Of a DNA stretch of 42,518 nucleotides, positions 363 to 35,147 are shown one piece after another. Below the pieces are notes generated by a model. That model worked only from the letters and a program-made list of their open reading frames with translations. It made no database searches and was not told the origin of the DNA. The stretch lies in the sequence record MF614100.1; one strand, 5' to 3'. Within the stretch, counting starts at the first letter, position 1, and each line of letters opens with the position of its first letter. Source of the stretch: Klebsiella phage vB_KpnS_IME279. The position numbers and the translations under genes are program-made.

Positions 363-546
363 CCCGTTACCGGAATGGCTGTAAGTTACTGAATATCATC
401 GGTAACATTGTCGGTGTAACAGTGTTACCTTTTTGAAACTTCGGAGCCACTGGGTAACGGTAACATAAATATATACCCCCTTTAGGGGGTATATGTTATG
501 TAACCCGTGACCGTTACCAGGAAATGTGACCGTTAAAAATCGTTAA
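363..546. repeat. Iteron-like cluster of GTAAC/GTTAC half-sites; candidate origin or operator region
   Basis: About 10 GTAAC or GTTAC pentamers in about 180 bp, against about 1 expected by chance. They include the tandem GGTAACGGTAAC and GGTAACATTGTCGGTGTAACAGTGTTACC. Confidence 0.6.
471..494. terminator. Perfect inverted repeat ATATACCCCC-TTTA-GGGGGTATAT. Likely terminator of the helicase gene, and possibly also a protein-binding site.
   Basis: 10-bp perfect arms. On the minus strand it is followed by ATTTATGTT, 40 nt past the helicase stop. Confidence 0.45.
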
Positions 547-2191
547 GATCATCAGCCCCGTCGTCCGGTTTATTGCCCCAGTCAGTCGGGCGCGGATCGT
601 TATCCTTTATCCCACCCAGGAGCGGGATCGCTTCGTTCATGGCGGTGAGCGTTTCGTCCCCGGCCATCTTGATCAGGATCTGCTTTTTGGTGGCATGTTC
701 AAAGGCGCGATGGAATTGCATCTTGTCCATCGGGTCGTCGGTCCCGGTTCGCGCCCAGTCCGATAACATGCCTTTGGTAAGTTTCGGCGTCCGGTAGTTC
801 TTTTCCTTTCTCGTCAGGTTGTACTCGTGGACAAACTGCGCCAGCCGGAGGGCGTTCTCCTGCGTCTTGCTCACCTTCTGCGCTGCGGCCTTCTCCTCGT
901 CCGCGCCTGCGTCCTGTTTGACCAGCTCCGGCTCGTTGATAACGATCAGCGTCGTGTCGTTGCTGCCGATGTGCCACGCGGCGGGGCCATCCTTCCCAGG
1001 TGCGGACATGCGCGCCATTGCGTCGCGTTTGGCTTTGACCAGCTCCGGCGGGAGTTTAACGGACTTCGTGCGGAATGCGCGCCGCTCCAGCATGGCGGAG
1101 CCTTTGGCTTTGGTGTGGTCGAAGATGAATAAATCGCGGTCCTTGTGCTTCGAGAGCGTGATCTCAAAGGCGGAGTTAGCCTTGAGGGCAGACGCCCCAC
1201 GTCCGCCGCGCGTCGCGTCCTTCCCGGAGTGGTGGAGGATCACCACGGCACAGTCCAGCGCCTCGGCCAGCTTCTGCGCGTTGGCTAACAGGATCGCGGC
1301 CTGGTCGTTGTTGTTCTCGGTGAATGGCTCGCCGCCCACCCAGCGCCCCGGCTCGTTGTCCTTCGGTTCGCGCCACTGCTCGCCGATCTTCTGGCCTGCG
1401 GAGTTGGCGCTATAGGTATCGATCACGACCAGCGCGGGCTTGTTACCCTCCAGCTCGAAGAACGGGGAGGCGTTGAATTTGGCCGCGAATTTCATCAGCT
1501 CGCGATCCCGGTGTAACGGTACGGGCTGCGCGATGATAAACAGGTTATCAAGCGGCCTGTTTTTGTTCTGGCTGTATACCCAGCCCGCGTAGCGCTCTTT
1601 CACGCCGTCGGCGTCCTCTGGCGCGAAGTACAGCACGGAGCCTTTACGGACGGGCAAACCCCCGAAGTGGTGGCCCTTCGCCACGCAGATAGCCATCTGG
1701 AGCGCGCAAAAGGTCTTTTTCGCCCCGGACTCGCCGACCAGGAAGCCCACGGACCGCTCCGGGATCAGGTTCTGGATCACGAAGTTGATAACACGCGGGG
1801 CGCTGGCCTCCCGGAGCTTGTCCAGAAATTCGTCCGGCTGCTCCGCCAGCATGGCCTTAATTTTCGCCAGGTCACGCTCGCGGCGCTCCTCGGTGGTCAG
1901 GCTGCGCGGCATCATGGCGGGCTGGTTGTCCTCGTCCAGCACCATGTCCCACTCGTGATCCGCTTCGTTTGTGCCGAAGTGGTAGAGCTGCACGTCCTCT
2001 AACGTCATGCCCTGCTCTGCGGCTGCGTCCTCGTCGATCGCCATCTGTCGGGCCAGCTCGTCCTCGCTCATTCCCGGCGAAGTCTCCAGCCATTCCGGCG
2101 GCTGCTCCAGAGGCGCGTCTCCTGGGAGGATCTGGTCGAGTAGTTCCTCTTTGCTCGGCTCCTGCTGGTCGTCTCTTTCGTCTTGGATCAT
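533..2191 (-). CDS. Replicative helicase, RepA/DnaB-like RecA-fold ATPase, with an acidic N-terminal region
   Basis: Walker A GESGAKKT, Walker B-like VVIDTYS and AVVILHHSGKD. SD AAGGAA precedes the ATG. The gene is flanked by iteron-like repeats. Confidence 0.7.
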   Translation of the reverse strand: MIQDERDDQQEPSKEELLDQILPGDAPLEQPPEWLETSPGMSEDELARQMAIDEDAAAEQGMTLEDVQLYHFGTNEADHEWDMVLDEDNQPAMMPRSLTTEERRERDLAKIKAMLAEQPDEFLDKLREASAPRVINFVIQNLIPERSVGFLVGESGAKKTFCALQMAICVAKGHHFGGLPVRKGSVLYFAPEDADGVKERYAGWVYSQNKNRPLDNLFIIAQPVPLHRDRELMKFAAKFNASPFFELEGNKPALVVIDTYSANSAGQKIGEQWREPKDNEPGRWVGGEPFTENNNDQAAILLANAQKLAEALDCAVVILHHSGKDATRGGRGASALKANSAFEITLSKHKDRDLFIFDHTKAKGSAMLERRAFRTKSVKLPPELVKAKRDAMARMSAPGKDGPAAWHIGSNDTTLIVINEPELVKQDAGADEEKAAAQKVSKTQENALRLAQFVHEYNLTRKEKNYRTPKLTKGMLSDWARTGTDDPMDKMQFHRAFEHATKKQILIKMAGDETLTAMNEAIPLLGGIKDNDPRPTDWGNKPDDGADDLNDF

Positions 2192-5863: not shown

Positions 5864-6381
5864 TGGCCGCCCTCCGGTTGTTCCTGCGCGCCTACTGGAA
5901 GCCGCTCGCGGTGCTGGTTGCCGTGCTGCTGGCTCTGGGGGGATCTTTCTGGGCTGGTCATGTCTGGACCGATCGAGGATGGCAGGTGAAGGAGTCCGCC
6001 CGCAAGGCGAACGAATCCGCCCAGGTCGCCATCGGTGAACATGCCGCCCGTATCATTGAACAAGGGCGGGACATTGCCCGCGAGGAGGCTGTAAAACATG
6101 CGAACGAACAAGCCGCACGGGCGCGCGCTGATTCCGCTGCTGCTGGGGCTGCTCTTGATCGGTTGCTCGCAAGAGCAAAGGCCGCCGAACAAGGTAACGC
6201 CGCCGCAAGTGCGACCGCTGCCCTCGGAAGCCAGGCAAGGGACAAGACAGCCAGAATGTACGCCGACTTGCTCAAAGGGACTGGAGCGCTCGCTCGACGG
6301 TATGCTGATATAGCCGACGACGCGATCACGAGGGGGGAGACTTGCGAAAGGATCTATGACTCGATAGTGAGTCAGCAATGA
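5860..6381 (+). CDS. Rz: i-spanin Rz
   Basis: N-terminal TM (LAVLVAVLLALGG), coiled-coil Ala/Arg-rich periplasmic domain. Sits downstream of the endolysin with an ATGA overlap. Confidence 0.8.
   Translation: MMAALRLFLRAYWKPLAVLVAVLLALGGSFWAGHVWTDRGWQVKESARKANESAQVAIGEHAARIIEQGRDIAREEAVKHANEQAARARADSAAAGAALDRLLARAKAAEQGNAAASATAALGSQARDKTARMYADLLKGTGALARRYADIADDAITRGETCERIYDSIVSQQ
6098..6313 (+). CDS. Rz1: o-spanin Rz1, embedded in the +1 frame of Rz
   Basis: Signal peptide with lipobox LLIGCS and a Pro-rich mature region. Fully embedded in Rz as in lambda. Confidence 0.75.
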   Translation: MRTNKPHGRALIPLLLGLLLIGCSQEQRPPNKVTPPQVRPLPSEARQGTRQPECTPTCSKGLERSLDGMLI

Positions 6382-11732: not shown

Positions 11733-13787
11733 ATGGTAGAGACACTGGAGCGCCAGATAGCGGCGATCGACAAAGACGCCATACTCCGCGCGCTGGGCGA
11801 CTTGCCCGTGACTCCATACGATCATCAGTTCGTAGCGTATGAGGCTTGTCAGCAAGCTATCCGAAAATATCCCGGCCCGGTTATTGTCGATGCCGCCGTG
11901 TCTGCGGGTAAGACAATCATGATCGCCATGCTGGCGCGCCGGATCCGCGATCTCGGCTATCCGGCCATGATCCTGTCCCGCCAGGCGGAGATCATCGATC
12001 AGGACCATGAGGAGCTGAAAAACTTCCAGGTGTGGTCCTCGATCTACTGCGCGGGCATCAATAACACGAAGTCGAACAAATTCCCGATCATCGTCGGCTC
12101 GGAGGGTACGGTGATCGGCGGCATTAAGCCAGGCGAAAAGCTGGCGAACTATGCGCCGCTGTTCCTGCTGATTGATGAATGCCATCACGTCAACATTGAG
12201 GACCTGATCCGCTCGGAAAATCGCAAGGTCCCGGAGTACCTGGTGGAGAATGGGGCCTATGTGCTGGACGAGTTCGGCGAAAAGGTTCAGGTAGGGGAGC
12301 ACGTCGGCGAGACTTACGAAGAAATGATCGAGAGTGGCCGCGCCGCCTATACGATCATCATTCGCACGTTTCAGGAGCGATGCCGCCGCGTCCACGGTAA
12401 GGAGCTGCGGATCATCGGTTACACCGGGACGCCTTACCGGGGCTGCGAGTCCATCATCCAGCCGGACCTTAAGGAGCCGGGATTCTGGCGTAAGAAGGTA
12501 TGCGAGATCTCTACGGAATACCTGGTAAGCGTCGGCGCTGTCGTCCCGACACGCTTCGGGATCTCCGATCTCCGGTACGACCTGAGCCAGTGGCGATCGA
12601 CGGGCGAGGAGGGGATCAAGGAGTTTTCCGACGCTGATATGAAAGCGATGGAAGCCGCGATCCATAAGGACAAAAAGCTCACACAAAAAATCATGGCGGA
12701 AGTGTACGCCATCACTGAAAACCGTAACGGGGTGCTGGTGACGTGCGCCGGGGTCCGCCACTGCAAAGAGGCCGCCGCCGCGCTGCCGGAGGGGACGCCG
12801 TTCGCCATCATCACGGAGGACACGACGCCGCGCAAACGCCGCGAGATCCTCAAAGATGCCAATACGGGCAAAATAAAATTCATCTTCCAGGTTAACGCGC
12901 TCACGACGGGCGTCAACGTGCCTTTCTGGGACACGTCGGTGATCCTGCGTAAGATTGGCTCCCTCACCCTGTTAACCCAGCTCTTAGGCCGTGGGATGCG
13001 TATTCTTAAGCCGTTCCATCTGGCCGCCGGGTACACGAAAGAGGATCACCTGGTACTCGACTACGCCGGGACGCTCGACGAGCTGGGATCGTTGTACTTC
13101 TCCCCGCTGCTGGAGGCTTACCAGCATAACGCCGACGAGAGCAAGGGTAAGCTGGTTCAGCGCTGCCCGAAATGTTACGCGGCTGGCCGCACGGTCATGA
13201 ATGGCGAACATGCCCGCCGTTGCCGCTGGGTGGATCCTGATACGAAGATCCGATGTGACCACTTTTTCACGTTCATAACCTGCGACGACTGGAAGGACTC
13301 CAGCGGGAAGATCGTCACACAAAAAGGCTGCGGCGCGAAAAATGACATTGTGGCCCGCATTTGCCGCTGCTGCGGTAATAGCCTCGTGGATCCGAATGAA
13401 AAGCTATCCCACACGGCATACAGCAAAGATGATTATTGCGCGGTCCGCGATTTCAGGATCGAGCCAGCGCGAGGCCGTAATGGCAACGATACGGGCGGCG
13501 TGGCTTTCCGGTACGTTCTGGAGCGTGACGGCGTGGAGTTTATCGCGTGGCAAGTGTTCTGGCCGGGTAGCGATTCCCCCCAGGCGCGCAAGGAGTGGCT
13601 ACATAACGCGGTCAATAAGCACGTACTGGACGGAAGCATGAGAAAGCAGATCAAGGAGTGCCGGACGGTCGGCGCTGTCATGAGTTACGCCGGGTACTTT
13701 ATGCGCCCGCTCAAAGTGACTCACCGCAAGATCGGCAAGGGTAAAGACGTTATTTCGAACAAGATTTTTCTGAATGAGGACTTTTAA
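11733..13787 (+). CDS. SF2 DEAD/DEAH-box helicase with a C-terminal zinc-finger region
   Basis: Walker A AVSAGKT, motif II LIDECHH, SAT-like GYTGTP. C-terminal CPKC...C..H...CCGNS cysteine clusters. Confidence 0.85.
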   Translation: MVETLERQIAAIDKDAILRALGDLPVTPYDHQFVAYEACQQAIRKYPGPVIVDAAVSAGKTIMIAMLARRIRDLGYPAMILSRQAEIIDQDHEELKNFQVWSSIYCAGINNTKSNKFPIIVGSEGTVIGGIKPGEKLANYAPLFLLIDECHHVNIEDLIRSENRKVPEYLVENGAYVLDEFGEKVQVGEHVGETYEEMIESGRAAYTIIIRTFQERCRRVHGKELRIIGYTGTPYRGCESIIQPDLKEPGFWRKKVCEISTEYLVSVGAVVPTRFGISDLRYDLSQWRSTGEEGIKEFSDADMKAMEAAIHKDKKLTQKIMAEVYAITENRNGVLVTCAGVRHCKEAAAALPEGTPFAIITEDTTPRKRREILKDANTGKIKFIFQVNALTTGVNVPFWDTSVILRKIGSLTLLTQLLGRGMRILKPFHLAAGYTKEDHLVLDYAGTLDELGSLYFSPLLEAYQHNADESKGKLVQRCPKCYAAGRTVMNGEHARRCRWVDPDTKIRCDHFFTFITCDDWKDSSGKIVTQKGCGAKNDIVARICRCCGNSLVDPNEKLSHTAYSKDDYCAVRDFRIEPARGRNGNDTGGVAFRYVLERDGVEFIAWQVFWPGSDSPQARKEWLHNAVNKHVLDGSMRKQIKECRTVGAVMSYAGYFMRPLKVTHRKIGKGKDVISNKIFLNEDF

Positions 13788-15342: not shown

Positions 15343-16068
15343 ATGGAAAACATCATCCAGTTTTCGGCCACTCGTGGCGAGTTTATGAAAGCGTTTTTTG
15401 CCGCCCGGAAGAACATCGGCACGATCTCCAAAACGCGCAAAAACGATCACTTAAAATCGACTTACGCCAACCTGTCGGACTACCTGGACGCCATCGACTC
15501 CGCGATCGAGGAGCAAGGCTTGATGGTGATCCAGTCTCCGGGCGCGTTTACCGCTGCGGGCGATATGCCGATGGAAACCAGGATCGAGCATGTCGAATCG
15601 GGCGAGTTTATGGTGGCGCTCATGGAGATCCACGTCGATCGCAAAAACGCCCAGGGCGACGGCTCCGCGATTTCCTACGCCCGCCGCTACCACATCGGCG
15701 CGCTGTTCGGTCTGACTGCCGACGACGACGACGGCCACGGCGCTAAACGCAAGTTTGCCGACTACAAAAAAGAGTTTGACCTGATCGAAGATATTACCGA
15801 ACTGAAAAAAGAGGCCCGCGTGGCGTTCATGTACCTGAAAGGCCAGGAGACGGAGCAAAACCTGATCCACGAGTACGTCGCGAAGCGTGAAGCCAAAGCG
15901 GCGGCCTCTACTGCGGTCGGCTTCAATCCGGCGGCCCCGGTTGCTCGTCGTGGTCAGAAACCGCAAAATGCGCAAGCCCCGGTACAGGGGCAGACGCCGG
16001 AGCCGGAAACGAAAGAGGCCCCTGCTCCGGTACAGGACGACAAAAAACCGAATCTTGAGGACTTCTAA
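15343..16068 (+). CDS. erf: ERF-family single-strand annealing protein
   Basis: [24 protein letters not shown] motif of the ERF superfamily, followed by the SSB gene. Confidence 0.8.
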
Positions 16069-30005: not shown

Positions 30006-30974
30006 TTAGTCTTTCTTCTCTAACTTTGCTTTCAGCTCAAAATATGCGTCCCAGTTGCCGGAGCTGCGCGCTTTTTCCTTCGCTGCTTCGAGCTGGCCGA
30101 TATTTTTAGCGCCGCCGTTGCCTTTCACCTGCGGAGCGCCGTTAACGTCTTTCTTCGCTCTCGGCGCGGTCCCTGCTCGGCGATCAATGTCGGCGATCAG
30201 GTAGCCCAGGCGAATATGGTCGTTATTATAGGCGTCCTCGATCTCTTGTCGCAATTTTTCGTTACGCGCAAGAGCCATAACGGTAAGGGTAGGCTTTTGA
30301 CTGTTCAGAAGCAAAGCGGCTTGCAGCGGCTCCGGCAGGGACGACACGATCTCCTCTGCCTGCTCATAGCCTGCGAATTTCTTCACGGCCACGGCGCGAT
30401 CCTGCTTGTACACTTCGCCGCGCTCCTGGATACGCGTCTGGAATTGCTCGGCCTTAGCCTGCTGGGTTTTCTGGTGAGCTTCGGCCTCGGCCTTTTGCTC
30501 ATACCATTTGTCCATCGCCTCGGCCAGTTTGCCCTCGTCCCAGTCGATCCCCTCGTCGCCTAACTGCGGCTTAGGCGGCAGATTGTCGAGACTGGTCGCG
30601 GGCTTGTGTTCGGTCTGGGTGGATTTCTGTTTGAGCTGGCGGGACTGCTCGCGGAGCTGCGCGCGTAATTTCTTCACCAGCTCGGAGTCGTTCGCGCCGT
30701 CCTCTACCTCGTCAGGATCCGCCAGGGGCTGGCCGTCGAAGGTAAACTCCTCTCCCTCGTCCTCGCCGTTCGGATCGTCGGTGGTGGTGCGCTGGCGCTC
30801 CGGGTTGTCGTCGTCGTTCGGATCACCTTCGCCGCGCTCGCCATTGTCGCCAGGATCGGAGTCGTCGGTGGTGGTTTCTGCGGTCTGTTCAGCCGCTCCG
30901 CCGCCAGCGTCGCCGCCCTGAGTGCCGTCGTCAAAGGCTGCGTAGTATTTTAACCATGCGTTACGAAATTTCAT
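30006..30974 (-). CDS. Scaffolding protein, with an unusually acidic low-complexity N-terminal 100 aa
   Basis: Highly charged helical protein immediately upstream of the coat gene. Asp/Glu/Gly-rich N-terminus. Confidence 0.65.
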   Translation of the reverse strand: MKFRNAWLKYYAAFDDGTQGGDAGGGAAEQTAETTTDDSDPGDNGERGEGDPNDDDNPERQRTTTDDPNGEDEGEEFTFDGQPLADPDEVEDGANDSELVKKLRAQLREQSRQLKQKSTQTEHKPATSLDNLPPKPQLGDEGIDWDEGKLAEAMDKWYEQKAEAEAHQKTQQAKAEQFQTRIQERGEVYKQDRAVAVKKFAGYEQAEEIVSSLPEPLQAALLLNSQKPTLTVMALARNEKLRQEIEDAYNNDHIRLGYLIADIDRRAGTAPRAKKDVNGAPQVKGNGGAKNIGQLEAAKEKARSSGNWDAYFELKAKLEKKD

Positions 30975-31115
30975 TGTAGATCCCCGTTTTGTTGCATACG
31001 CGATGTATTTCGCCCATCGGTGGCGGGGATAAGTGTAAGAGAAGTTTTACATCATATGCAAGGGGGAAAGGTTTAAGGCCGATCCCCCCAGAGGTGGCGG
31101 GCTAATTTGTGGCTA

Positions 31116-31586
31116 TCAGAAAGGGATATCAAGCGGCTTGTCGTTGTTGGCCGGAGGAACGATCTCGGCGTCCTCCACGTCCTCCGCTTTGCGCGGGTTC
31201 ACTTCGCGAGCTGCGTCCGCTGCGGCCACAAAATCGCCCTCCAGCGGCCCCTTGTAGGTCAGTTGTTTAATGCTGGCGATATCTGCGAGGAGCTTCGACT
31301 CTGCCACCACGAAGTCGGCGCGGAGTTTCTGGAGTCCGGCTTCCATGATCGGGAGGCTGATCTCTGCCTGCTCCTCGGCGGTCGGCATGGTGTAATCAAT
31401 ATCGATCTCGATCTCTTTTAACAAGACGTAAGCCGCATTTTTGCCGCCTGAATTAATATGCTCCTGGACGCCCCAGATCGCGCCGTAATCGTAACTTTCC
31501 ACGGACACGGATCCGCGCTTGTCGCCGCCCTGGCTACCTTCGGCCACGCAAAGGCAAACGTACATTGTTTTTTTGATAGTTGGCAT
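31116..31586 (-). CDS. Hcp (T6SS tube protein)-like protein with a C-terminal acidic tail ending DIPF
   Basis: MYVCLCVAEGSQGGDKRGSVSVESYDYGAIWGVQEH ... LKEIEIDIDYTMPT matches the Hcp pattern Y..I.G..G.S...IKGS..V....W.G.SQ ... K.ID..TP. The last residues, KPLDIPF, were checked codon by codon. SD AGAGGA. Confidence 0.6.
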   Translation of the reverse strand: MPTIKKTMYVCLCVAEGSQGGDKRGSVSVESYDYGAIWGVQEHINSGGKNAAYVLLKEIEIDIDYTMPTAEEQAEISLPIMEAGLQKLRADFVVAESKLLADIASIKQLTYKGPLEGDFVAAADAAREVNPRKAEDVEDAEIVPPANNDKPLDIPF

Positions 31587-31610
31587 TGTCTCTTATCCTC
31601 TTTGGGGTGG

Positions 31611-31628
31611 GGCGGGACGATGCCCGCC
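31611..31628 (-). other. Intercistronic GC hairpin GGCGGG-N6-CCCGCC followed by CCACCCC before the start codon
   Basis: Member of the recurring hairpin-plus-motif family (see findings). Confidence 0.45.
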
Positions 31629-31635
31629 GCCGGGG

Positions 31636-32052
31636 TTATTTGTTGCGAGCGCCGATCATGCCCTGCCACATGAAAACGACGGTATCAGATAACAGCTCTT
31701 TGGCCTCCTCCTCGCTCATTTGCTCGTAGAGGCTATCGAGCGCGCCGGGTAGCTGCTCCCATAGTGCCTTTTGCCCTTCCTCCACCTGCGCCGCCGTCGG
31801 CTGGAGCTGGACCTCGATCGGGGAGGGTTCAGTGTCGCCGGACTTGACGCGGGGGTGAGCGTTAGCCATGAGGGACTCGGCCTGCATACCCACCAGCGCG
31901 AACGCCGTCGCCAGTGCCGCCAGATCCTCCTCGGTCGGCTGCTGGATAAACATCTGGGCCAGGCGGGCCTCCATAGTGCGGACCTTATCGCCGATCCCGT
32001 TCTCGTCGCACTCGGCCAGAATGATCGCGCGCGCTGCTTTTACTTGATCCAT
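31636..32052 (-). CDS. Hypothetical all-helical acidic protein, 138 aa
   Basis: ORF in the portal-scaffold insertion. Confidence 0.6.
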   Translation of the reverse strand: MDQVKAARAIILAECDENGIGDKVRTMEARLAQMFIQQPTEEDLAALATAFALVGMQAESLMANAHPRVKSGDTEPSPIEVQLQPTAAQVEEGQKALWEQLPGALDSLYEQMSEEEAKELLSDTVVFMWQGMIGARNK

Positions 32053-32054
32053 TG

Positions 32055-32327
32055 TTAACTCCTGATAATTTCGAATGCTTGCACCTGGTTAGTGCGATAA
32101 CTGCCATGATTGCAGGCGTAACCGTCTTTGCTGTCCGGGCCATCAGTCCAGAGATCCTCATCACAAAGCGGGGTAAAGTGTCCGGCTTCTCGGTGAGCGC
32201 TATCCTTAAAAAATCCCAGGGTATAGCGATAAATCTCCAGGGTGTACTCCTCCACCTCGTAGCCAGTACCCCACCACATAGGGCGGATCCATCTTATCCG
32301 ATCGCCTGGTTTTGGTTCGTTACCCAT
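32055..32327 (-). CDS. Hypothetical protein, about 90 aa, with His/Cys residues
   Basis: ORF 32055-32456. Preferred start is MGNEPKPGD, with SD GAGGAG. Confidence 0.5.
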   Translation of the reverse strand: MGNEPKPGDRIRWIRPMWWGTGYEVEEYTLEIYRYTLGFFKDSAHREAGHFTPLCDEDLWTDGPDSKDGYACNHGSYRTNQVQAFEIIRS

Positions 32328-32348
32328 AAGCTCCTCTCGTCGGTGAAT

Positions 32349-32366
32349 GCCCCGGCGGTCCGGGGC
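32349..32366 (-). other. Intercistronic GC hairpin GCCCCGG-N4-CCGGGGC followed by ATTCACCGACGAGAGG
   Basis: Recurring element (see findings). Confidence 0.5.
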
Positions 32367-32373
32367 GTTGTGG

Positions 32374-32811
32374 TTATGCGTTGCCCTGCGCCTGAGCGGC
32401 CAGGAGCTGGATAATCGGCTCCACGTCGGCCTCCGCCGCCGGGATAGGCAGGTCAACCACGCCGCGCGGGTTGCCTCTGGAAATGTGGAATTTCCAGATC
32501 GCCATCACGTCGTCCAGCGAGTAGCCCGCCAGGATCTCTTCGTGGATCTTCTGCGCGCCGTTGGTTTCGTTAAACTCCAGGACCTGATCAACGGTCGGCA
32601 TCTGGTTCCCGAATTTCGCCATTGTGCGGGCCATGACGACCACGCCGACGCCACGGGACAGGAAGGTGTTACCCTGCTCGCCGCCGGAAACCATCACGGC
32701 GATCTCCGGCTCGTCGGTGTTCGGGTGGTAGGCAAGGGCGAGGGTAACGAAGCCGCCGCGCGGGGTGACTTCGAAAACGCGAGCTGCTTGGGTGGTGGTG
32801 ATCTCTTTCAT
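32374..32811 (-). CDS. Hypothetical protein, 145 aa
   Basis: SD GAGAGAGGA. First gene after the portal terminator. Confidence 0.6.
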   Translation of the reverse strand: MKEITTTQAARVFEVTPRGGFVTLALAYHPNTDEPEIAVMVSGGEQGNTFLSRGVGVVVMARTMAKFGNQMPTVDQVLEFNETNGAQKIHEEILAGYSLDDVMAIWKFHISRGNPRGVVDLPIPAAEADVEPIIQLLAAQAQGNA

Positions 32812-32849
32812 GGTGTCCTCTCTCAGTTAATCACGATAGCGTGATGTTG

Positions 32850-32881
32850 TGTGAGAAAGAATAGCCCGGACGTACCGGGCT
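32850..32881 (-). terminator. Probable (partial) terminator after the portal gene
   Basis: AGCCCGG-TACGT-CCGGGCT followed by ATTCTTTCTC on the minus strand. Confidence 0.5.
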
Positions 32882-32912
32882 GTAAAGTGTTTTTTTACTG
32901 CTTTCGTTAAAA

Positions 32913-35147
32913 TTATTGTGCGGCACGTTCCAGGGTGCTGTCGGCCTGCTGCTGCGCCTGGCGCTCGGCCAGTTGCTGCGCTGCGCGGTCGCTCTGGATC
33001 TGGTGGCCCTGCCCGACGGATTTCAGGAACAAGTCGGCCTGTTTGTGCGCGTCCTGGCTCTGGGCCGTGACGTACTTCTGGAGGATGGCAACGGCGGCCA
33101 TTAGCTGATCCTGCGGGATAGCTGCGGCCTCGGCCATCGTCTTGACGGTCTGCGCCTGCTTGAGCTGGCCGTCTGCCTGCGTCCCCTGCGCCTTGAGCTG
33201 CAATTCTAAACGCTTGTTGTCCTGCTCCATAACGGCGGCCTTGCCCTGGTCTGCCACGCCCTGCGCTGCGACCATCTGCGCGTCCGGCTGGTCCTGCTGG
33301 CTCTGCTGGGCCTGCGCTACCATCTGTTTTTCCTCGTCCGTCTGCGGCTTCACAATGCCGGAGAGTAAGAGCTGGTTGCGGGTGTACTCTTTGAAGTCCT
33401 GGAGGCCCTCGCCGTCCATGTTCGCGATGATCAGGCTCATGACGATCGTCGCGTTAGGGTCGCCCGGTTGCATGGTCGCTAACAGGTTAGTCAGGCTGCG
33501 GACAGTCTGCTGGCGTCGCGTCTGGGAGGACTCGCCGACGTCGGCCACGATCTCATATTTGCCGCGCTTGAGGTCGTTAATCGCGATCACTTCCTTCGTC
33601 TCGCGATCGACAACCTTCCCGGTCATTAATACGAGGTCGTCGCTCCCGTCCTCCTGCTGGATCCTCACGTAAGACTCGGAGCCGTAAACCTTGCGAGCGG
33701 CGGACAGGTAGACGCGGCCACAATGGCGCAACGTCTTAGCCAGGTTGTCCATGTAGAGCGCGCCCTGGCCGTCCATGCGCGCGAAAATTGCCTCCACGGT
33801 TTCAGTCGCCAGATTCGACGGCAGCGCTTCGAGCTGGGAGGATCCGACAATCTGCTGGATAGTCGCCCCGGTGTACTGGAGAACGGCAGCGAGCGCCGGA
33901 GAGAGCGGAGTCGCCGGAGTATAGCCCAGCGGTCCGGCCTGCTGGACGACCTCACCAGACGCATTACGGAGCGATTTAGCGGGCAGGTATGCGGGGCGCT
34001 TCGTGTTTCGATCCCCCCAGGCGTTGGCGAGATTTCCGGGGATCATGTCGATATCCATGATCGGGATGTTGTCGCCGCCTGCCTGCGCGGCCTGGTCGGC
34101 CATCATGGACACGATCAGGTTTTCCAGACGCTGGGCGTCCATCGCGAGCGTGGCGTGGCCCATCACGCGCTCCTGGTTGTCGATAAACGAGCGGCGCGCG
34201 TTGAAGATAAAGACCGGGATCCATTCGAACGGGATCAGCTTCGGCTCCTCGATCCACTCCCCGCCGGAAAACAGACCGCAATAGACCTTACGACGTTTGA
34301 CACGGCGATCCTTGAGCTTTTTCCAGCCTGCGGCCTTAAGCTCGTCGAAAACCTGCTCCATGTCGTCCTCGTCGTAAACCTCCGTTTCCCCGGTGAGCGG
34401 GTTCTGGTAGGAGATCACGGTGGTGTCCTCGATCTTCACCTCGTAGTAACGGGCGATATAAATCGCGTCTTTAGAGGCCCAGTCAAACCATTTGCCCGTG
34501 TTCAGCTCCATGAGGTCCTCCGGGGCCATCGCGTCCGGGTAACGCTCCTCGTACTTCTCCGGGGTCATGCTGAATAGCTCGGCCATCCACATAGCATCAC
34601 TGCGATCGTACATTTTGGAGTCAGGATCGACAAAGAGGCACGAGGCCGGATCGTAGATCGGGTAAAAGACGATATGACGCTCCTCATTGTCGGGATCAAA
34701 TTCGTCCTCCAGCTCCGTGTCCATGCGAAACGCGCCCATCCCGCCGTCGATGCCGTCGCCGTAAGTGTTATCGACGGACTCCGGCCCGTTGCTCTCGTTG
34801 TAGTCGGCGCGGAATTTGCCGTTTAGCTTGTCGGCCAGCTCCTCGGATGCCTTTTCGTCCTTCGGACGGAATACCACGGAGACACGGTTAAGGCGGTAAT
34901 CGGTGATCAGGCGGTCGCACTCGCGGGCCACTTTGTTAAGTTCGAATCGAGGGTATTTCTCGAATCGTTCATCATCCATCGCAAAGCCGGAGTTGGTCGA
35001 TCCTTCCCACTGCGCGCCCGGAATACGGACAAAGCGCTGGGTTTCGATCATTTTCTTGCGGCTTTGCTCCTCGCTGGCGATCGTCTGGCTCAGGCGCTTG
35101 CGCGCCGTCTCATGCCAGTTCTGGGCCGATTTGGTGACTCGTGCCAT
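32913..35147 (-). CDS. Portal protein, P22 gp1-like with a C-terminal Gln-rich barrel region
   Basis: LKDRRVKRRKVYCGLFSGGEWIEEPKLIPFEWIPV aligns with P22 IAERQIKRRRVYKSI...GEHIPIVPVFGEW. The C-terminus is Gln/Ala-rich, as in the P22 portal barrel. Confidence 0.9.
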   Translation of the reverse strand: MARVTKSAQNWHETARKRLSQTIASEEQSRKKMIETQRFVRIPGAQWEGSTNSGFAMDDERFEKYPRFELNKVARECDRLITDYRLNRVSVVFRPKDEKASEELADKLNGKFRADYNESNGPESVDNTYGDGIDGGMGAFRMDTELEDEFDPDNEERHIVFYPIYDPASCLFVDPDSKMYDRSDAMWMAELFSMTPEKYEERYPDAMAPEDLMELNTGKWFDWASKDAIYIARYYEVKIEDTTVISYQNPLTGETEVYDEDDMEQVFDELKAAGWKKLKDRRVKRRKVYCGLFSGGEWIEEPKLIPFEWIPVFIFNARRSFIDNQERVMGHATLAMDAQRLENLIVSMMADQAAQAGGDNIPIMDIDMIPGNLANAWGDRNTKRPAYLPAKSLRNASGEVVQQAGPLGYTPATPLSPALAAVLQYTGATIQQIVGSSQLEALPSNLATETVEAIFARMDGQGALYMDNLAKTLRHCGRVYLSAARKVYGSESYVRIQQEDGSDDLVLMTGKVVDRETKEVIAINDLKRGKYEIVADVGESSQTRRQQTVRSLTNLLATMQPGDPNATIVMSLIIANMDGEGLQDFKEYTRNQLLLSGIVKPQTDEEKQMVAQAQQSQQDQPDAQMVAAQGVADQGKAAVMEQDNKRLELQLKAQGTQADGQLKQAQTVKTMAEAAAIPQDQLMAAVAILQKYVTAQSQDAHKQADLFLKSVGQGHQIQSDRAAQQLAERQAQQQADSTLERAAQ

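Follow-up and report, generated by a model that had tools for sequence, protein, structure and literature searches.

Between the portal and scaffold genes of Klebsiella phage vB_KpnS_IME279 (sequence record MF614100.1; the window is the whole analysed stretch of 42,518 nucleotides) lie four small genes, here called A to D, whose distribution among related genomes marks them, with high confidence as far as comparative anatomy goes, as occupants of an old, clade-wide, modular accessory cassette (the slot) inside a head-gene block of the P22 type. The explanation we favour, and hold to be slightly better than even, is that of a clade-wide accessory slot delimited by hairpins and expressed at a low level, in which protein D would mimic the C-terminal tail of SSB (single-stranded DNA-binding protein). 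Confidence in the functional part of this explanation is modest. Moron-like or hyperplastic slots within a structural operon are already known; what is new is the anatomy of this one and a core protein, D, that bears an SSB-type tail. The slot and its boundary genes are, from upstream to downstream:

32913-35147, minus strand: portal gene, 744 amino acids, upstream boundary of the slot (Pfam P22_portal, E=3.9e-154; phrog_156)
32374-32811, minus strand: gene A (gp42), 145 amino acids, isoelectric point (pI) 4.8, first slot position
32055-32327, minus strand: gene B (gp41), 90 amino acids, tryptophan-rich, pI 5.0, starting with MGNEPK
31636-32052, minus strand: gene C (gp40), 138 amino acids, pI 4.4, all-alpha with two lobes
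31116-31586, minus strand: gene D (gp39), 156 amino acids, net charge -12
30006-30974, minus strand: scaffold gene, 322 amino acids, downstream boundary of the slot (phrog_648, head scaffolding protein, E=5e-79)

The four minus-strand open reading frames (ORFs) reported by the initial annotation are present as described, with flanks secured by Pfam and PHROG matches, and their acidic, soluble products (pI 4.4-5.0) are exact matches to gp42, gp41, gp40 and gp39 of IME279, respectively. The ratio of non-synonymous to synonymous substitution rates (dN/dS) against relatives is 0.42 for A (compared with Sortsne), 0.24-0.44 for C and 0.22-0.42 for D. These values are similar to that of the scaffold gene (0.29) and correspond to a faster evolution than that of the portal gene (0.14). 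For gene B, the proportion of non-synonymous differences is 0.16-0.29 against 0.74-0.91 for synonymous ones. Non-synonymous change is far below synonymous change, which rules out spurious ORFs; judged by these ratios, A to D are real genes, all under purifying selection. The DNA is 98-99% identical to that of Escherichia phage sortkaff (species Sortsnevirus IME279). Both are virulent podophages of ~42 kb and 59% GC with a morphogenesis block of the P22 type: the coat protein matches Pfam P22_CoatProtein (E=1e-72), and homologues of gp4, gp10, needle and ejection proteins are annotated downstream in Sortsne.

The portal-to-scaffold interval was read in about 15 distinct genomes, using annotations and ORFs and clustering the encoded proteins. 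The survey spans Sortsnevirus, Murrayvirus, Skarprettervirus, Giessenvirus, Kc166B and metagenomic relatives (IMG/VR and Logan contigs). Two to four small genes lie between portal and scaffold in every clade genome surveyed, with the following contents, read from portal to scaffold:

IME279: A-B-C-D
sortkaff: A-C-D-E
Sortsne and one IMG/VR contig: A-C-E
Kc237: F-C-E
ST231: F-C-E
sortsyn: F-C-D-E
IME_EC2: F-C-D(split)-E
Lumpael, sortregn and one IMG/VR contig: F-G-C-E
KMB41: F-H-D-E
Logan contig L013: F-B-D-E
Skarpretter and C130_2: D-I
IMG/VR contig L024: D-I-B
Kc166B and Logan contig L034: J-D-I

The short and long forms of E and the I proteins form one superfamily (hhalign probability 93-95%), and hhalign detects no relation among A, F and J. 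Given these architectures and family relations, the order (A/F/J)-(C)-(D)-(E/I) is kept throughout while each position is optional. Positions are gained, lost or replaced one by one, with B, G and H as sporadic inserts, and even genomes sharing 98-99% identity do not always have the same slot content. Gene A is confined to Sortsnevirus, the first position being held elsewhere by F (73 amino acids) or J (about 150 amino acids), and C is a near-core slot gene in Sortsnevirus and Murrayvirus. D and E/I have the deepest distribution within the clade, D being a slot gene of Skarpretter, C130_2, Kc166B and L034 as well; by this distribution, both are ancient members. In IME_EC2, the D gene (L009, 3738-4264) seems to be split or truncated, remnants of its N-terminal part lying in a different ORF.

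Lederbergvirus genomes (P22/Sf6/HK620) have homologues of the portal, scaffold, coat, gp4, gp10 and needle genes, arranged identically, but no genes between portal and scaffold, and their portal is just 31-45% identical. Indeed, in P22, HK620 and vB_EcoP-720R6 the scaffold gene begins 13-90 nucleotides past the portal gene, in agreement with the earlier statement that the one directly follows the other in P22-type genomes. The proposal of a four-gene insertion survives insofar as the genes are extra relative to these three phages. It does not survive as a description of IME279 itself: slot, post-portal hairpin and gene order are common to at least five lytic lineages, and only B is recent. The position is likewise occupied in all relatives, as the decoration-type alternative raised at the time would have it, but by genes without a known assembly role in any of them. 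The slot genes A to D have no counterpart in 5,426 E. coli genomes, nor does B have one in plasmids.

Compared with sortkaff, the slot of IME279 shows two clean differences, namely the insertion of B and the loss of E. The B insert of 278 bp (32056-32333) separates the ATG of gene C from its Shine-Dalgarno sequence (SD) and brings a new SD for C. B has a GC content of 50.9% and a GC content at third codon positions (GC3) of 53.8%, against 59.3% for the genome and a GC3 of about 70-80% for the neighbouring genes; A, C and D have 56-62% GC, near the genome value. The B family comprises only five clusters in 5.8e9 proteins and is found at three different slot positions in three lineages (IME279, L013 and L024). 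Homologues that are 65-70% identical occur in the early/replication regions of the siphophages K1M and CF-SP1, where they adjoin ParB-like and beta-clamp-like genes. B is therefore a recently acquired, low-GC mobile ORF, the sole recent arrival in the slot. The second difference is located as follows:

31113-31116, minus strand: junction at which gene E is cleanly absent, by comparison with E of sortkaff (88 amino acids; L001, 6203-6469)

E or its relative I occurs in every other clade genome examined, and no E-like sequence is present elsewhere in the window, so that IME279 has lost the gene. The same E-less A-B-C-D haplotype recurs in metagenome contigs of independent samples and is therefore not an assembly error. 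Exchange is also visible among the resident genes. D of C130_2 is 76% identical to that of sortkaff and IME279, against about 61% identity between the C130_2 and IME279 portals. In C and D, IME279 and sortkaff have a synonymous divergence of 0.09-0.10; the figure is 0.01 for A and 0.02-0.04 for the portal and scaffold genes. Both patterns point to exchange by recombination: the former indicates a transfer of D between genera, and for the latter, positions 31116-32052 form a local mosaic patch relative to sortkaff that is consistent with recombination.

The AlphaFold model of D begins with a three-stranded sheet at residues 3-64, continues with a 40-residue helix at 70-110 and turns into a disordered acidic tail at about residue 111. 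Its predicted local distance difference test score (pLDDT) is 75.8 overall, about 90 over the first 100 residues and below 50 for nearly all of 111-156. The D family is very small: it comprises 23 clusters at 90% identity, and its profile, run exhaustively with HMMER, finds six representatives (at 50% identity) in 1.84e9 proteins. Only three IMG/VR loci carry D. Compared with Pfam, NCBIfam, PADLOC (which covers defence and not anti-defence proteins) and PHROG, proteins A to D give a single match, that of C to phrog_35278, a family of unknown function. The D profile has zero matches at E<=1 among PDB sequences, the C profile has no significant one, and the sole Foldseek match of D among viral models is its Skarpretter homologue. 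Structural, ejection or decoration families are not found for A to D in Pfam or PHROGs, and fold searches of C and D are negative.

These searches do not bear out the description of D as Hcp-like. D has no Pfam match at E<=0.1, and therefore none to T6SS_HCP, no NCBIfam match and no match to a PDB sequence, and a sheet with helix and tail is not the compact beta-barrel, assembling into hexameric rings, of the Hcp fold. The reading of the genes as a cargo or effector cassette finds no support in the family and fold searches of D either. A recent four-gene insertion of an Hcp-like cassette would account for genes that are extra relative to P22 and HK620, and nothing else speaks in its favour. 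With a slot that is ancestral to the clade, A, C and D at genome GC, a D protein that is not Hcp-like by sequence or fold and no secretion-related genes in the annotated sortkaff and Sortsne genomes, it is very improbable; the clade-wide survey and the fold search of D refute its recent-insertion and Hcp parts, respectively.

The functional indication that D does offer lies in its tail:

31119-31130, minus strand: codons for the D-I-P-F tip of D, a look-alike of the SSB C-terminal tip

D ends in …EDVEDAEIVPPANNDKPLDIPF, its C-terminal peptide reading …PPANNDKPLDIPF. The SSB encoded by the phage itself (16071-16619, plus strand) ends in MDFDDDIPF, which is the tip of E. coli-type SSB. Among the 260 ORFs of at least 50 amino acids in the window, SSB and D alone end in the pattern [DE]x?[ILVFSP]PF. 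The SSB C-terminal hexapeptide is a conserved partner-binding motif (PMC5872125). Throughout the D family, the tips read DIPF, DVPF, DFPF, NVPF or DSPF behind a variable linker. For instance, Skarpretter D, only 34% identical overall, ends in DLDIPF, and L024, C130_2 and Kc166B D end in DADFDDIPF, ADFDPDIPF and DDDKFNVPF, respectively. The most distant representatives end in DDDALDVPF, DEKDDFPF and LLFKDSPF. The disordered acidic C-terminal region of D and its terminal D-I-P-F thus resemble the SSB tail, the ends …DFDDIPF and …DFDPDIPF of some homologues coming near to the …MDFDDDIPF of E. coli SSB, and proline and phenylalanine are kept in every tip-bearing D seen. These two residues of the SSB tip are critical for partner binding, and the ssb-113 allele is P176S. 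The codons for D-I-P-F vary from genome to genome (GAC ATA CCA TTT; GAT ATC CCT TTC; GAT ATT CCG TTT; and others), and IME279 and sortkaff D differ by five synonymous changes in the last five sense codons with the same peptide. Such synonymous codon turnover at an unchanged tip shows directly that the tip is under selection.

D differs from SSB in having no oligonucleotide/oligosaccharide-binding (OB) fold and no sequence similarity to SSB, and its gene lies in the head block and not in the replication module. The missing OB fold and the net charge of -12 show that D is no second SSB, and its acidity throughout makes binding of single-stranded DNA unlikely. The SSB C-terminal peptide is a hub that recruits more than a dozen enzymes of replication, recombination and repair. 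A phage protein carrying the SSB peptide alone on an unrelated, non-DNA-binding scaffold was not found in the literature searched, the coverage of which is incomplete. Further acidic ends with a terminal Asp-Phe are seen in the window: an Erf-like protein (15343-16068, plus strand) ends in …NLEDF, a helicase (11733-13787, plus strand) in …LNEDF and an AAA ATPase (533-2191, minus strand) in …DDLNDF. Together with the host-type tip of the phage SSB, these ends suggest a network of C-terminal-tail interactions. Similar tail interactions are known for gp2.5 and gp4 of T7.

In the mechanism we propose, the slot products, being small, acidic, soluble and individually dispensable, would most probably target DNA metabolism or host interactions within infected cells. 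D would oligomerise via its helix and, without binding DNA, display flexible acidic tails ending in D-I-P-F. These tails could fill the SSB-tail pockets of host or phage partners, such as exonuclease I, RecQ, RecJ, PriA, RecO and the chi subunit of Pol III, so that D would act as a decoy or adaptor at SSB partners. The replication module annotated in Sortsne comprises primase, helicase, exonuclease, Erf and SSB; a DNA polymerase is missing from the annotation, which fits a dependence on host SSB partners. In its most specific form, the proposal is that D is the first dedicated SSB-tail mimic, oligomerised by its helix, that hijacks or blocks the host SSB interactome and has long been kept as the core of a separately transcribed cassette in the head-gene block, perhaps so that replication and repair give way to packaging in infected cells, or so that SSB-dependent nucleases are blunted. 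This form we put forward tentatively, as a possibility that is more doubtful than probable.

The separate transcription of the slot is suggested by the elements that bracket and divide it:

32853-32886 (stem 32863-32881), minus strand: terminator-like post-portal hairpin AGCCCGG-TACGT-CCGGGCT, then ATTCTTTCTC
32349-32366, minus strand: intercistronic GC hairpin GCCCCGG-ACCG-CCGGGGC, without a U-tract, before B
31609-31631, minus strand: intercistronic GC hairpin with the core GGCGGG-CATCGT-CCCGCC, just upstream of D
31061-31101, minus strand: conserved motif CCCGCCACCTCTGGGGGGATCG and then a G6/C5 hairpin, after the last slot gene
31032-31061, minus strand: promoter-like TTGCAT-N18-TACACT upstream of scaffold, matched nowhere else in the window (0.17 matches expected by chance)

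The hairpin noted earlier behind the portal gene proves to be real. RNA folding of the post-portal intergenic region gives z=-6.1, far better than shuffled versions. The hairpin is present in all eight aligned lineages (8/8), where 100% of cells are paired and two pairs have switched on both sides (G:C to C:G or A:U); a control in which the 3' partner was slid along shows no covariation. It is visible in Kc166B and L034 too. Overlapping it is the promoter-like TTTACA-N17-TATTCT (32858-32886, minus strand; a consensus match). Within the slot, a GC hairpin, a strong SD or both stand ahead of every gene, as first described: hairpins precede B and D, and an SD precedes all four. Upstream of A, the post-portal hairpin is followed by GAGAGAGGA; the hairpins before B and D are followed by GAGAGGAG and AAAGAGGA, respectively, and C has CAGGAG alone and no hairpin. 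Internal gene boundaries carry hairpins in many lineages, with differing sequences: one of different sequence lies in Sortsne and Kc237 at the boundary equivalent to 32349-32366, and others precede D in KMB41, L013, IME_EC2, Kc166B and L034. Past the last slot gene, the motif CCRCCACNCTGGGSGGATC is common to all lineages. Behind it stands the terminator-like G6/C5 hairpin, a weak one in IME279; its counterparts in Murrayvirus, Kc166B and L034 have a U-tract and are clear terminators. An alignment of 10 genomes gives TTGCAW-N18-TAMACT as the consensus of the promoter-like element upstream of scaffold; the hexamers are largely kept (-35 variants TTGCAT, TTGCAA, TTGCTA in Kc237 and TTGCCA in Skarpretter) and the spacer differs.

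In our reading, the bracketing hairpins would insulate the slot from the high-level scaffold/coat transcription unit. The slot would then be expressed separately, at the level of the portal or below, with scaffold and coat under their own promoter. Low and separate expression argues against decoration or other abundant structural proteins and fits low-copy regulators better. A role of the slot products as decoration proteins was rejected, because homology is lacking and the slot has a terminator-like hairpin in front of it and lies upstream of the promoter-like element of scaffold and coat.

A second explanation places the slot products in the virion, as minor head or internal proteins that sit in the procapsid near the portal and are possibly injected, like the T4 internal proteins or SPP1 gp7. 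T4 internal-protein loci are hypervariable and have anti-restriction roles. The location of the slot between portal and scaffold, within the morphogenesis block and on the same strand, agrees with this, as do the long synteny of D and E/I with head genes and the small, acidic nature of the proteins. In GenBank, the C and F homologues of Kc237 (L002, 6558-7243) are even labelled 'internal virion protein'. However, the Kc237 paper (PMC8402661) has zero mentions of the term and no mass spectrometry, which leaves the label unsupported. Pfam and PHROGs reveal no homology to structural families and there is no structural match, genes for ejection or DNA-transfer proteins of the P22 type already exist downstream, and a terminator-like hairpin precedes the slot. 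Moreover, single genes come and go between near-identical phages, and homologues of B reside in early/replication modules of siphophages. We regard a virion role as unlikely, though it is the main rival reading.

The turnover of the slot could also stem from an arms race, in which case it would be an anti-defence island, each small acidic protein opposing a different host defence. Small size, acidity, fast evolution (dN/dS 0.2-0.45) and a presence/absence mosaic speak for this, as does the restriction of the families to phages, without members in E. coli genomes or, for B, in plasmids. B moves horizontally between unrelated phages, and D has been exchanged between genera. Nonetheless, there is no similarity to any characterised protein, and PADLOC, limited as it is to defence proteins, gave no match. 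Anti-defence genes usually lie in early regions, and D and E/I are ancient and fixed in position, unlike typical arms-race cargo. As a distinct explanation, this one seems improbable; it overlaps the SSB-tail reading because a D decoy could serve counter-defence.

Several points weigh against the favoured explanation of a separately expressed slot with an SSB-tail mimic. The post-portal hairpin has a poor U-tract (AUUCUUU) and could be an RNA stability or processing element instead of a terminator, and the promoter calls of the slot are consensus matches only. In two truncated homologues, alone among those seen, the DIPF tip is missing, D of sortsyn (L006, 5869-6339) and of IME_EC2 stopping at …DAEIV, so that the tip is not indispensable, and a tip of four residues can arise by convergence for a different partner. 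D and E/I are syntenic within the head block over deep divergence (portal identity across the slot-bearing clade falls to about 58-61%, and lower still in L034), and an assembly or packaging role could explain this. For A, B and C, the family searches gave no functional clue. Finally, no transcript maps, virion proteomes or binding data were found in the literature for any clade member, the proteomics search having covered Sortsnevirus, IME279, Murrayvirus, Kc237 and KMB41.

The slot shares several features with the morons of lambdoid and HK97-type phages, reportedly described by Juhala, Hendrix and colleagues. It consists of extra genes flanked by two conserved genes within a late or structural operon, and B and E are present or absent at the same site in near-identical phages, with clean junctions. 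It is bracketed by promoter-like and terminator-like elements, as consensus and conservation evidence suggests, and it shows a deviant base composition, in B only (GC 50.9% against 59.3%). It differs from morons in being multi-gene with a conserved internal order and in its ancient members D and E/I, the GC content of which has converged on that of the genome. IME279 is moreover virulent and not a prophage, and lysogenic expression therefore cannot be the rationale of the slot. The hyperplastic regions of T4-type phages consist of small ORFs bounded by stem-loops, and one such T4 locus, next to head genes, encodes packaged anti-restriction proteins. The slot resembles these hyperplastic and internal-protein loci in belonging to a lytic phage, in its hairpin-separated small ORFs and in gene-by-gene shuffling at a fixed position. 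It differs from them in showing no similarity of sequence or fold, and neither a prohead protease nor a capsid-targeting signal was identified here.

Swap-prone accessory slots are familiar in phages, and the cassette itself is ordinary. Near-identical circulating phages that differ by just B and E nevertheless constitute a natural experiment, which makes the contributions of single small genes directly testable. If D indeed docks on SSB partners, it would represent a new viral way to rewire host DNA metabolism and a natural inhibitor scaffold for the SSB-partner target. The SSB-partner interaction is already being pursued as an antibacterial target (PMC10143822, PMC5872125).

Two smaller observations concern the edges of the slot. 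In Kc166B, the annotated start of the first slot gene reads through the post-portal hairpin (L027, 5832-5925); the true start is likely the ATG at 5926 (MTTENK), which has an SD upstream. An Rfam scan of the region gave nothing meaningful. At the opposite edge, the 5' leader of scaffold (30975-31101, minus strand) is more conserved than the flanking genes, being 88-92% identical to those of Lumpael, ST231 and KMB41. It contains a further element:

31001-31019, minus strand: conserved hairpin CGATG-N9-CATCG in the scaffold 5' leader

The synthesis of the P22 scaffold is autoregulated. The conserved leader of IME279 may be a regulatory operator, and in Kc166B and L034 its hairpin reads CGTTG/CAACG, with a compensatory change of A:T to T:A.

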